From assembly GCF_003334385.1 (NCBI RefSeq), contig NZ_QOWN01000024.1: a stretch of 64,000 bases of DNA; one strand, written 5' to 3'. Below, piece by piece: positions 291 to 49,606 of this stretch. A program made the translations under genes and the position numbers. The notes under the pieces were generated by a model that saw nothing but the letters and a program-made list of their open reading frames with translations, searched no databases and was not told the DNA's origin. Within the stretch, counting starts at the first letter, position 1. Every line of letters starts with the position of its first letter. The DNA is from Escherichia coli. GTDB taxonomy: Bacteria; Pseudomonadota; Gammaproteobacteria; Enterobacterales; Enterobacteriaceae.

Positions 291-535
291 ATAGAGCGAG
301 GACGCTAACAGGAACAATGACTCAGGATGAGGGTCAGGAGCGCCAGGAGGCGAAGACAGAGGATTGTCAGGAAGACAAACGTCCGGAGACGTAATTAAAC
401 GGAAATGGAATCAACACGGATTGTTCCGGCTAATGGAAAAACAGGGTGTGTTGGCGGCCTGCAAGGATTGTAAGACCCGTTAAGGGTTATGAGTCAGGAA
501 AAAAGGCGACAGAGTAATCTGTCGCCTTTTTTCTT
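291..535 (+). ncRNA. csrC: CsrC small RNA (CsrA-sequestering)
   Basis: About 245 nt upstream of yihI with many GGA/AGGA motifs (caggatga, caggagcg, caggagg, caggaag, ccggaga) and a terminal hairpin ggcgacagagtaatctgtcgcc plus T-run at 505-532. Position between yihA and yihI matches K-12. 5' end approximate. Confidence 0.75.
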
Positions 536-601
536 TGCTTGCTTTCTGTTAGATTCCGCCGCAAATCTATACTGAATAAAACGGCTAAAAGACGAACCAT
601 T

Positions 602-1296: not shown

Positions 1297-2670
1297 ATGT
1301 CTGTACAGCAAATCGACTGGGATCTGGCCCTGATCCAGAAATATAACTATTCCGGGCCACGATACACCTCGTACCCGACCGCGCTGGAGTTTTCAGAAGA
1401 CTTCGGCGAACAGGCGTTTTTACAAGCCGTGGCGCGCTATCCTGAGCGTCCATTATCTCTCTACGTACATATCCCGTTCTGCCATAAGCTTTGTTACTTC
1501 TGCGGTTGCAATAAGATTGTTACTCGCCAGCAGCACAAGGCCGATCAGTATCTGGACGCGCTGGAGCAAGAAATCGTCCATCGTGCACCGCTGTTCGCCG
1601 GGCGTCACGTCAGCCAATTGCACTGGGGCGGCGGAACGCCGACGTATCTGAATAAAGCGCAAATCAGCCGCCTGATGAAGCTGCTGCGCGAAAACTTCCA
1701 GTTCAATGCCGATGCGGAGATTTCGATCGAAGTCGATCCGCGGGAAATCGAACTGGATGTACTCGATCATTTACGCGCCGAAGGCTTTAATCGCCTGAGC
1801 ATGGGCGTGCAGGACTTCAACAAAGAAGTGCAACGTCTGGTTAACCGCGAGCAGGATGAAGAGTTCATCTTTGCACTGCTTAACCATGCGCGTGAGATTG
1901 GTTTTACCTCCACCAACATCGACCTGATTTACGGCCTGCCGAAACAGACGCCGGAGAGTTTCGCCTTTACCCTGAAACGTGTGGCGGAGCTGAACCCCGA
2001 TCGTCTGAGTGTCTTTAACTACGCGCATCTGCCGACCATTTTTGCTGCTCAGCGCAAAATCAAAGATGCTGACCTGCCGAGTCCGCAGCAAAAACTCGAT
2101 ATCCTGCAGGAAACCATCGCCTTCCTGACGCAATCGGGCTATCAGTTTATCGGTATGGATCACTTTGCCCGTCCGGATGACGAGCTGGCGGTGGCCCAGC
2201 GTGAAGGCGTGCTGCATCGTAACTTCCAGGGCTACACCACTCAGGGCGATACCGATCTGCTGGGGATGGGCGTTTCCGCCATCAGCATGATTGGCGACTG
2301 CTACGCGCAGAACCAGAAAGAGTTGAAGCAGTACTATCAGCAAGTGGATGAACAAGGCAATGCGCTGTGGCGTGGTATTGCGCTAACGCGTGATGACTGT
2401 ATTCGCCGCGATGTGATTAAGTCGCTCATCTGCAACTTCCGTCTGGATTACGCCCCTATTGAGAAACAGTGGGATTTGCACTTCGCTGATTACTTTGCGG
2501 AAGATCTCAAGCTGCTCGCCCCGTTAGCAAAAGATGGGCTGGTGGATGTGGATGAGAAGGGAATACAGGTGACGGCGAAAGGTCGCTTGCTGATCCGCAA
2601 CATTTGCATGTGCTTTGATACCTATCTGCGCCAGAAAGCGCGGATGCAGCAGTTCTCTCGGGTGATTTAA
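1297..2670 (+). CDS. hemN: oxygen-independent coproporphyrinogen III oxidase (radical SAM)
   Basis: ORF 1291..2670; from ATG 1297 gives MSVQQIDWDLALIQKYNYSGPRYTSYPTALEF, 457 aa; radical-SAM Cys cluster CHKLCYFCGC present. Confidence 0.95.
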   Translation: MSVQQIDWDLALIQKYNYSGPRYTSYPTALEFSEDFGEQAFLQAVARYPERPLSLYVHIPFCHKLCYFCGCNKIVTRQQHKADQYLDALEQEIVHRAPLFAGRHVSQLHWGGGTPTYLNKAQISRLMKLLRENFQFNADAEISIEVDPREIELDVLDHLRAEGFNRLSMGVQDFNKEVQRLVNREQDEEFIFALLNHAREIGFTSTNIDLIYGLPKQTPESFAFTLKRVAELNPDRLSVFNYAHLPTIFAAQRKIKDADLPSPQQKLDILQETIAFLTQSGYQFIGMDHFARPDDELAVAQREGVLHRNFQGYTTQGDTDLLGMGVSAISMIGDCYAQNQKELKQYYQQVDEQGNALWRGIALTRDDCIRRDVIKSLICNFRLDYAPIEKQWDLHFADYFAEDLKLLAPLAKDGLVDVDEKGIQVTAKGRLLIRNICMCFDTYLRQKARMQQFSRVI

Positions 2671-2737
2671 ATAGTGAATGGCGCTTCGTTTACAAAGTAG
2701 AAAACGAAAGCGCCATCAATGTGCTGAGAACAAGATT

Positions 2738-2866
2738 GCCTGATGCGCTGGGCAACAAAACCTGTTGAAATTATTGCTTTTGTAGGCCGGATAAGGCGTT
2801 TACGCCGCATCAGGCATCTGAGCATGATGCCTGATGCGGCGCTGGTCGCGTCTTATCAGGCCTACG
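2738..2866. repeat. REP/BIME palindromic element cluster
   Basis: gtaggccggataaggcgtttacgccgcatcaggc and inverted copy gcctgatgcggcgctggtcgcgtcttatcaggcctac downstream of hemN. Confidence 0.8.
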
Positions 2867-2898
2867 ACTTTCTCCGCATCCGGCATAAACAACGAGCT

Positions 2899-3009
2899 TC
2901 AGCTAAACAGCCCAATCATCGCGGCACACAGCACGGCAGCAACGGCAGTTTGCGGTGTGTGGCTGTCAACTGCGCCACTCGATACCAGATTAATTATTGA
3001 TTCCAGCAT
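2899..3009 (-). CDS. yshB: small protein YshB (36 aa)
   Basis: Minus-strand ATG at 3009 to TGA at 2899 translates MLESIINLVSSGAVDSHTPQTAVAAVLCAAMIGLFS; below the ORF-track size cutoff; matches remembered K-12 small protein between hemN and glnG. Confidence 0.55.
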   Translation of the reverse strand: MLESIINLVSSGAVDSHTPQTAVAAVLCAAMIGLFS

Positions 3010-3120
3010 AATGACTCTCCCCGTTTTCCGGGCAAGATCATACTGAACTTATCGGAACAGTAAAGCGCAAAATACCAGCAATTTGCGCTCAATAATCAAT
3101 CTTTACACACAAGCCGTGAA

Positions 3121-4530
3121 TCACTCCATCCCCAGCTCTTTTAACTTACGCGTCAGAGTGTTGCGGCCCCAGCCGAGTAGCCGCGCCGCTTCCTGTTTAT
3201 GCCCCTGCGTATGTCGCAACGCGGTCGTCAGTAACGTCCGCTCCAGCTCTGGCTGCGCTTCGGAAAGCAGATTTTGATGACCGGAACGTAGCGCTCTGTC
3301 TGCCCACTGCGCAAGAAGCGTCGCCCAACTGTCCGGTTGCATTTGCGAAGTACTCTCCGCAACCGTTGATTCAAACAGTTCGCCAGGCAAATCCTGAATC
3401 AACACTTCCTGTCCGGCAGCCATTACCGTTAGCCAGCGGCAGGTGTTTTCCAGCTGGCGCACGTTGCCTGGCCACGCCAGACGCGTCAACGCGGCTTCGG
3501 TTTCCGGATGCAGCAACTTCGCTTCTACGCCCAGTTCTCGCGCGGCAACCTGTAAAAAATGGCGCGCCAGGCGGGGAATATCTTCCCGACGCTCACGCAG
3601 CGGCGGCAGATGAACGCGGATAACGTTCAGGCGGTGGAACAGATCCTCACGGAACTTACCTTCCTGCACCCGCTGTTCGAGATTCTGGTGAGTGGCAGCG
3701 ATAATCCGCACATCCACTTTCACCGGCGCATAGCCGCCAACGCGGTAAAACTGGCCGTCTGCCAGCACGCGCAGCAAACGCGTCTGCACATCCAGCGGCA
3801 TATCGCCAATTTCATCGAGAAATAATGTACCGCCATCAGCCTGTTCAAAACGCCCCTGACGAATGGTATTCGCGCCGGTAAACGCGCCTTTCTCGTGACC
3901 AAACAGTTCTGATTCGATCAAATCCTTCGGGATAGCCGCCATATTCAGAGCGATAAATGGCGCTTTGGCTCGCGGACTGTGGCGATGCAGGGCATGAGCG
4001 ACCAGTTCTTTACCGGTGCCGGATTCGCCGTTAATCAGCACGCTAATAGAAGAACGCGAAAGCCGACCGATAATACGGAACACGTCCTGCATGGCTGGCG
4101 CTTCGCCGATGATATCGGTCGTTGGGCCGTTAAGCTGAACATTACGCGGCTGCTGCTGTTCCTGGTAATGACTGATGGCGCGCTCAACCAGCGCCACGGC
4201 TTCGTCGATATCAAACGGTTTGGGCAGATAATCAAACGCCCCTTGTTGATAGGCGCTGACGGCAGCATCCAGATCGGAATGTGCGGTCATAATGATGACC
4301 GGAAGCATCGGATGGCGCTGTTTAATCTGCTTGAGCAGCGCCAGCCCGTCCATTCCCGGCATACGGATATCTGAAAGCAGCACATCCGGCGTTTTGCTCG
4401 CCAGCGCCTCCAGTACCTCCGCGCCGTTCTCAAATGTCGTACAGGTTAAACCCGCTCCAGCGAGCGCACGTTCAAGCACCCAACGGATGGAACTATCGTC
4501 ATCGACTACCCAGACTATCCCTCGTTGCAT
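3121..4530 (-). CDS. glnG: nitrogen regulation response regulator NtrC (sigma54 activator)
   Basis: ORF 3121..4590 trimmed to ATG at 4530 ([23 protein letters not shown]), 469 aa; receiver domain, AAA+ sigma54-interaction motif [11 protein letters not shown]-terminal HTH. Confidence 0.95.
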
Positions 4531-7454: not shown

Positions 7455-7512
7455 ACGTTGCACCAATATAGTGCTTCAATGGAAACATTAAGCACCATGT
7501 TGGTGCAATGAC
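7455..7512 (-). promoter_or_regulatory. NtrC enhancer binding sites upstream of glnA
   Basis: Palindromic GCACCAtgtTGGTGC at about 7495-7509 and TGCACCAatataGTGC at about 7459-7474, roughly -140 and -108 relative to glnAp2. Confidence 0.7.
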
Positions 7513-7658
7513 CTTTGGATAACCCTTTTTATGCTCCGTGAAAGCGATCACAAAGGGACTCTGCAATACTTGTTTGCGGAGGATGTTTGTGATCCTGTTT
7601 TGTAGTGCGATTAATCCGTGTACAATAACGCGCTATTTCTAATGCCTGAGGCAAAGTT

Positions 7659-40510: not shown

Positions 40511-40735
40511 ACCCGTAGGCCGGATAAGGCGCTCGCGCCGCATCCGGCAATCAATGCCTGATGCGACGCTGTCGCGTCTTATCAGGCCTACAACTATTGC
40601 CGACCTGTAGGCCGGATAAGGCACTTGTGCCGCATCCGGCAATCAATGCCTGATGCGACGCTGTCGCGTCTTATCAGGCCTACAACTGTTGCCGACCCGT
40701 AGGCCGGATAAGGCGCTCGCGCCGCATCCGGCAGT
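40511..40735. repeat. BIME array: about 2.5 tandem copies of a ~100-bp REP-containing unit
   Basis: Unit gtaggccggataaggcgctcgcgccgcatccggcaatcaatgcctgatgcgacgctgtcgcgtcttatcaggcctacaac(t/a)(a/g)ttgccgac repeated between rhaA stop and rhaD start. Confidence 0.9.
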
Positions 40736-49520: not shown

Positions 49521-49606
49521 TGTAGGCCTGATAAGACGCTATCAGCGTCGCATCAGGCATCCTGCTCAAATGCCTGATGCGGCGTAAACGCCTTATCCTG
49601 CCTGCA
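49521..49606. repeat. REP palindromic elements
   Basis: gtaggcctgataagacgctatcagcgtcgcatcaggc and gcctgatgcggcgtaaacgccttatcc between convergent yiiM and cpxA. Confidence 0.8.

Follow-up and report, generated by a model that had tools for sequence, protein, structure and literature searches.

A 36-codon frame between glnG and hemN of Escherichia coli is identified as yshB, a conserved gene for a predicted small membrane protein

Identity of the gene

The open reading frame on the minus strand at 2899-3009 of the DNA analysed here is almost certainly the known gene yshB. The DNA, called the window below, is a stretch of 64,000 nt of Escherichia coli (assembly GCF_003334385.1, contig NZ_QOWN01000024.1). 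The gene and its two neighbours are arranged as follows:

2899-3009, minus strand: yshB coding sequence, 36 codons plus TGA, with an ATG start
3121-4530, minus strand: glnG, the neighbour on the 5' side of yshB
1297-2670, plus strand: hemN, convergent with yshB

Translation of the minus strand at 2899-3009 gives MLESIINLVSSGAVDSHTPQTAVAAVLCAAMIGLFS, followed by the stop. A preliminary description of the window, made from the letters alone, had given this translation with the same ATG and TGA ends, and all were reproduced exactly. It had also likened the peptide to YshB of strain K-12, and the databases bear this out. The product annotated in BW25113 (a K-12 derivative) is identical to the peptide, and so is the cluster sequence named 'Uncharacterized protein YshB ... 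RepID=YSHB_ECOLI' in the protein collection. The peptide is likewise 100% identical to RefSeq WP_000893994.1, "YshB family small membrane protein". The NCBIfam equivalog NF033841 (small_YshB) matches it with 72.1 bits (E = 2.4e-20) against a cut-off of 34 bits, residues 1-36 being aligned with profile positions 1-40 of 40. The EcoCyc identifier of the gene is G0-10657. A Pfam search returned no family for YshB, and a search of PDB sequences returned no relative, even at E = 10.

The genomic context is consistent with this identification. The annotation of BW25113 has yshB in the corresponding place, flanked by hemN and glnG (L001 3300-3410, minus strand). Strain 203740 (NZ_CP025913.1 from 1330327) is collinear with the window, with 20 mismatches over the first 39 kb, and its yshB, with the product WP_000893994.1, is annotated at the position that maps to 2899-3009. 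The 601-nt region around the gene is 99.3% identical between the window and BW25113, and 100% identical between the window and strain 203740. Set against K-12, the gene shows no differences: 36/36 residues, the position between hemN and glnG, the orientation, the promoter and the Shine-Dalgarno sequence are all alike. As a query, the 601-nt region was matched in 5426 of 5426 complete E. coli genomes of the collection, at least 80% of it in one place in 5404 of them; yshB, glnG and hemN were annotated under the match in 24/24 records among the matches listed. In some E. coli genomes, for example UTI89, only 87% of the region was matched, in two pieces. The gene is thus already annotated by RefSeq in E. 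coli and has been detected experimentally, and there is nothing biologically new in the gene itself.

The preliminary description had further remarked that genes of fewer than 60 codons are invisible to a six-frame track with a 60-codon minimum, which is true by construction. An ORF listing with a 20-aa minimum does show '2899..3009 - 36aa ATG'. In a near-identical strain, RefSeq annotates no intact coding sequence of less than 60 aa across these 64 kb other than yshB. It serves as a positive control for such a scan, a reader without tools having recognised a real 36-codon gene that the 60-codon track could not show.

Evolution of the coding frame

Across genera, yshB evolves as a protein-coding frame under purifying selection. 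Orthologues were collected with the peptide pattern HTPQTA..A[VI][LM]CA, back-translated to a DNA pattern and run against one genome per species. All of the 64 loci found (64/64) are true yshB orthologues. Within the Enterobacteriaceae they come from Escherichia, Salmonella, Citrobacter, Enterobacter, the Klebsiella oxytoca group, Kosakonia, Pluralibacter, Siccibacter, Leclercia, Trabulsiella and Phytobacter, and among other Enterobacterales from Erwinia, Izhakiella, Brenneria and Affinibrenneria. Frame and stop are kept in 64/64 loci, the stop coming directly after the hydrophobic helix. The start M-[LF]-[ED]-[ST] is present in all 63 loci with an intact end; the remaining locus is cut by the locus end. 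Length variants are in-frame only, namely 35 aa (a one-codon deletion) and 40 aa (a four-codon insertion).

In the 40-aa form, the insertion (e.g. G-V-E-A) lies between the N-terminal helix and the HTPQTA motif. This form was seen in Kosakonia, Siccibacter, Leclercia, Brenneria and Affinibrenneria (loci L004, L008, L011, L031, L035-L038, L045, L050, L052, L053, L055 and L065). Therefore, the linker of YshB is variable in length, and the motif and the membrane helix are fixed.

The variation is concentrated at third codon positions. In 49 distinct 36-codon sequences, the mean column entropy at codon positions 1, 2 and 3 is 0.36, 0.12 and 1.08, respectively. The pooled pN/pS of yshB is 0.18; as the search pattern imposes conservation of codons 17-29, the ratio was recomputed without these codons and came to 0.30. 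Alternative and antisense frames are open in just 1-14 of the 49 sequences. A pattern-free phmmer search of 1.84 billion representative proteins gave 15 hits, 14 of them YshB-like, and nearly all of these 14 keep the HTPQT core, two having a one-residue change there. The fifteenth hit is a protein of 1,691 residues with no matched stretch.

The order of the genes is also constant. Every locus with flanks has glnG on the same strand, then yshB, then convergent hemN. The spacer between glnG and yshB is 104-119 nt in nearly all loci (111 nt in the window, from stop codon to ATG). The gap between yshB and hemN varies from 33 to 611 nt across loci. Two soil metagenome bins labelled 'Proteobacteria bacterium' (L008 and L015) also carry glnG-yshB-hemN. 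The YshB sequences of these bins match the Kosakonia type exactly and the Enterobacter type almost exactly, and the two bins are therefore probably Enterobacteriaceae.

The protein and published work on it

The preliminary description had called the product a small hydrophobic protein, and its composition agrees: the GRAVY value is 1.12, and there are zero Lys/Arg, two acidic residues and one His. AlphaFold2, run with a 42-sequence alignment, predicts helices at residues 2-12 and 17-35 with a mean pLDDT of 74.9. The C-terminal helix, with pLDDT of about 80-86, is 19 residues long and ends one residue before the C-terminus. By hydrophobic moment, the N-terminal helix is amphipathic (0.5) and the C-terminal helix uniformly hydrophobic (0.05); the hydrophobic core proper spans only ~15-16 residues. 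YshB of the window has the family length (~36-40 residues), the M-L-E-S start and the core HTPQTA..A..C. In 42 distinct orthologues, the residues H17, T18, P19, Q20, T21, A22, A25, C28 and A29 are invariant, which is partly imposed by the search pattern; the HTPQT core is kept also by the pattern-free phmmer hits. The model supports the prediction that YshB is a tail-anchored, single-span small protein of the inner membrane. There is no Lys or Arg, and therefore the positive-inside rule gives no topology for it.

The discovery of YshB is credited to Hemm et al. 2008 in PMC9731577. Intact YshB has been detected by top-down mass spectrometry, and bottom-up methods miss it because it has no tryptic sites (PMC12529367). 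A prediction of more than 11,000 copies from ribosome profiling (Li et al. 2014) is quoted in PMC7549839. Thus, the translation of the frame is documented in the literature by two approaches. Plasmid-borne His-tagged YshB was not detectable (PMC7549839). Tagged YshB was classified as a 'class I' substrate of RseP, scored '+' in four of four assays; it was cut in cells with RseP encoded on the chromosome or on a plasmid, purified RseP cut it in vitro, and it was additionally clipped by an unidentified periplasmic protease (PMC10470546). RseP cleavage of tagged YshB implies membrane insertion, with the authors' own caution that the constructs were N-terminally tagged and that tags may impose topology (PMC10470546).

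In Salmonella, YshB is reported to promote virulence and replication inside cells (Bomjan et al. 2019, cited by PMC10470546 and PMC9731577). The Salmonella enterica protein is identical to that of E. coli at 33/36 residues, the differences being V23L, M31L and I32V, and it shares the synteny and the promoter of yshB. Salmonella enterica differs in having no large REP cluster downstream, the gap being 54-64 nt against 228 nt in the window. The virulence phenotype is that of Salmonella; none is reported for E. coli YshB in the papers cited here. A molecular mechanism of YshB is not reported in PMC12529367, PMC7549839, PMC10470546 or PMC9731577.

Promoter, leader and flanking elements

A consensus scan and RNA folding outline the following elements on both sides of the gene:

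3037-3064, minus strand: sigma-70-type promoter of yshB, with -35 TTTACT (3064-3059), a 16-nt spacer and -10 TATGAT (3042-3037); from the consensus scan
3017-3022, minus strand: Shine-Dalgarno sequence GGGGAG, its GGAG ending 7 nt before the ATG
3020-3032, minus strand: leader hairpin CCCG-GAAAA-CGGG, its 3' arm overlapping the Shine-Dalgarno sequence; seen in the fold
3065-3088, minus strand: hairpin GCGCAAA-N10-UUUGCGC downstream of glnG, followed by UUUACUGUU; seen in the fold
2677-2717, no strand assigned: hairpin lying 7 nt away from the hemN stop; fold energies of -20.0 and -18.8 kcal/mol for the two strands
2740-2892, no strand assigned: REP/BIME cluster of nested palindromes between the yshB stop and the hemN-proximal hairpin; found as inverted repeats

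In an alignment of 62 loci (Enterobacteriaceae, Erwinia and Brenneria), CTTTAC is invariant and GTATGATC is invariant or at least 90% conserved. The most conserved non-coding columns across the 62 loci are CTTTACTG and GTATGATC. A sigma-54 promoter in the conserved CTGGTATTTTGCGC block was considered and rejected by eye, the GG-to-GC spacing there being 8 nt as against 12 nt. The literature agrees with a promoter of its own, and reports that yshB is not induced by nitrogen limitation (PMC9731577). The G-rich Shine-Dalgarno block is likewise conserved in the 62 loci. As to the leader hairpin, 88% of cells are paired and two of its four pairs are changed on both sides in the same alignment, and it may have a function.

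The hairpin at 3065-3088 is a candidate terminator of the glnALG operon. Its pairing is kept at 83-95% across loci, with many broken cells in Klebsiella and Salmonella. The -35 of yshB (TTTACT) coincides with the U-rich 3' tail of this hairpin, and therefore the candidate glnALG terminator and the yshB promoter overlap. The hairpin at 2677-2717 is a candidate terminator shared by the convergent hemN and yshB transcripts. In REP-free genera, or those with short spacers, a single GC-rich hairpin lies between the stop codons of yshB and hemN. A terminator scan called no canonical intrinsic terminator in 2600-3300, so we only infer the terminator roles of 3065-3088 and 2677-2717. The stretch that overlaps the glnG stop and continues just beyond it (window ~3106-3125, minus strand) varies from genus to genus and often forms a short perfect palindrome; Citrobacter has, for instance, GTGACGATTCGTCAC, and Leclercia and Pluralibacter have GCCCGGGC or GGCCCGGGGC.

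The REP/BIME cluster has a fold energy of -77.7 kcal/mol (z = -7.6) and is matched at 2785-2862 by the REP-derived Rfam family naRNA4 with 75 bits. The corresponding part of the 601-nt query is found at 17 places in the median E. coli genome. A REP cluster downstream of yshB is specific to Escherichia. The gap between yshB and hemN is 228 nt in the window and 611 nt in one Escherichia sp., and 33-100 nt in most other genera. Further REP/BIME clusters of the window, at 40518-40680 and 49525-49602, likewise score as naRNA4.

Complementarity between the glnG spacer and the yshB codons

An inverted-repeat search found a complementarity of 14 nt, consisting of 13 Watson-Crick pairs and one G-U, between the spacer after glnG and the beginning of yshB:

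3089-3102, minus strand: upstream arm AGAUUGAUUAUUGA, 18 nt past the glnG stop; carried solely by read-through RNA from glnG
2987-3000, minus strand: downstream arm UCAAUAAUUAAUCU, yshB codons 4-8 (S-I-I-N-L)

The long-range helix is present in the minimum-free-energy fold of the read-through RNA (z = -3.1), where the AUG region is also paired, with the transcribed copy of the -10 region. The duplex energy, computed on short windows, is -15.4 kcal/mol in Escherichia (p ~0.003 against shuffles) and also in some Citrobacter, -11 kcal/mol in Salmonella and -16.2 kcal/mol in Enterobacter hormaechei. The two arms of E. hormaechei each differ from those of E. coli at 4-5 positions. Against shuffled upstream arms, p is 0.02 or less in Escherichia, some Citrobacter, Salmonella and E. 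hormaechei. Klebsiella, Kosakonia, Pluralibacter, Erwinia and Brenneria lack the pairing.

As a structure conserved throughout the family, the long-range helix was rejected by three kinds of test. RNAalifold on 62 loci gave essentially no consensus structure (-1.68 kcal/mol). Column-wise, the long-range helix is paired at 70.6%, and the four helices together at 78.4% against 76.6% after column shuffling. Permutation within genera gave p = 0.35 for Citrobacter and p = 0.26 for Enterobacter, hence no co-variation, and for Escherichia plus Salmonella a signal that is only marginal (p = 0.047); the permutation over all taxa (p = 0 of 5000) is confounded by phylogeny. The complementarity is real in E. 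coli, and selection for it is unproven.

It is conceivable that glnALG read-through RNA folds so as to close the ribosome-binding site of yshB, 3102-3089 pairing with 3000-2987 and the -10 copy with the AUG region, or, alternatively, that the helix marks a processing site which defines the 3' end of glnALG. We consider this unlikely, and its scope would be Escherichia and, less perfectly, Salmonella, Citrobacter and some Enterobacter. If it were true, YshB would be made only from the transcript of its own promoter, in which neither upstream partner is present, and the induction of glnALG by nitrogen starvation would leave YshB synthesis unaffected.

Alternative explanations

Three other readings of the locus were considered, and all of them fit the data poorly. 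The simplest is that the frame arose by chance and is untranslated, the region between hemN and glnG being merely 3' UTR, terminator and REP. Short frames are indeed plentiful: ORFs of 36 codons or more number 504 in the window (301 with an ATG start), against ~60 annotated genes, and a length of 36 codons is by itself not beyond chance. Moreover, two longer ORFs on the opposite strand, 2743-3000 (plus, 85 aa) and 2834-3046 (plus, 70 aa), overlap yshB. These cross the REP cluster, are long enough for the 60-codon six-frame track and are unannotated, and the antisense frames are not maintained in other species; they are likely spurious. What sets the yshB frame apart from a chance one is that it is identical to a gene already annotated and that it has been conserved as coding sequence in many genera. 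A chance frame would not be expected to keep its stop and frame in all 64 loci and its start in 63, in many genera, with variation dominated by third positions, indels in frame only and a conserved promoter and Shine-Dalgarno sequence upstream; nor would its product be detected by mass spectrometry (PMC12529367). The comparative pattern together with the published detection of the protein has effectively refuted this reading already, and we give it a negligible probability.

It could also be argued that the locus acts mainly through a regulatory RNA (an sRNA or one with a dual function) and that the peptide is secondary. The short transcript carries a structured leader and a REP-rich tail, and a study of Salmonella reportedly met YshB in the course of work on sRNAs. 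In Pseudomonas, the sRNA NrsZ lies at the equivalent position downstream of ntrBC (PMC9731577). Against an RNA role, Rfam gives no hit in the region besides the REP-derived naRNA4, RNAalifold shows no conserved structure, and conservation follows the codons, third positions having an entropy of 1.08 and second positions one of 0.12; the block that does not vary is the HTPQTA motif of the peptide. An RNA as the main product is therefore very improbable. A hydrophobic peptide akin to the type I toxins of the Hok, Ldr and Ibs families, damaging to membranes and normally repressed, would agree with the small size and hydrophobicity of YshB, and HokB and HokE share with it class I of the RseP substrates (PMC10470546). 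Such a toxin is hard to reconcile with a protein reported as abundant in normal growing or stationary cells (PMC7549839, PMC12529367), or with the strong, conserved promoter of constitutive type and the Shine-Dalgarno sequence. The consensus scan found no promoter-like site on the opposite strand, and Rfam found no RNA gene besides REP. In addition, yshB is a single-copy core gene with fixed synteny, unlike mobile multi-copy toxin loci, and YshB lacks the charged residues typical of Hok/Ldr/Ibs toxins. We regard the toxin reading as extremely improbable, and the frame as the conserved protein-coding gene yshB.

Other features of the window

Several RNA elements elsewhere in the window score above the Rfam gathering score:

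291-544, plus strand: CsrC sRNA (Rfam, 277.9 bits), between yihA and yihI
7470-7577, plus strand: ES222 sRNA, between glnA and typA; above the gathering score
9467-9535, plus strand: STnc370, at the 3' end of typA; above the gathering score
54607-54648, minus strand: ES036 (CssrF); above the gathering score
35206-35264, minus strand: SECIS element inside the formate dehydrogenase alpha-subunit gene; above the gathering score

In strains 203740 and BW25113, RefSeq places a pseudogene ('hypothetical protein, frameshifted; internal stop') inside CsrC (L067 317-483), which looks like an artefact of annotation over an RNA gene. The gene for the alpha subunit of formate dehydrogenase bears the RefSeq label fdnG, yet it is located in the fdo operon.

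Possible mode of action of YshB

Comparison with other small membrane proteins of enterobacteria may provide some clues regarding the role of YshB. MgrB, AcrZ, MgtS and CydX resemble it in size class, in having one hydrophobic helix and in coming from the same kind of small-protein searches, and MgrB and CydX, as YshB, were scored as candidate substrates of RseP (PMC10470546). They share no sequence similarity with YshB, the phmmer search of 1.84 billion proteins having returned only YshB-like sequences and the one unmatched hit of 1,691 residues. YshB also differs from the four in having no known partner, no Lys or Arg, and a helix that ends at the C-terminus.

The gene is transcribed constitutively from its own conserved sigma-70-type promoter in the 111-nt glnG spacer, independently of NtrC, and is efficiently translated from the GGGGAG Shine-Dalgarno sequence into the 36-residue YshB. 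The only hydrophobic span is C-terminal, and hence the protein is probably inserted into the membrane post-translationally, by analogy with YohP (PMC7549839). RseP turns YshB over. By analogy with MgrB, AcrZ, MgtS and CydX, YshB could use the interfacial HTPQTA motif, which is invariant, and the Cys-bearing face of the membrane helix to bind and modulate a larger membrane protein, its level being limited by RseP; this is a tentative proposal, which we place somewhat short of an even chance. For functional experiments on YshB, the HTPQTA motif and the membrane Cys, the near-invariant promoter and the fixed synteny with glnG and hemN could all be of help.
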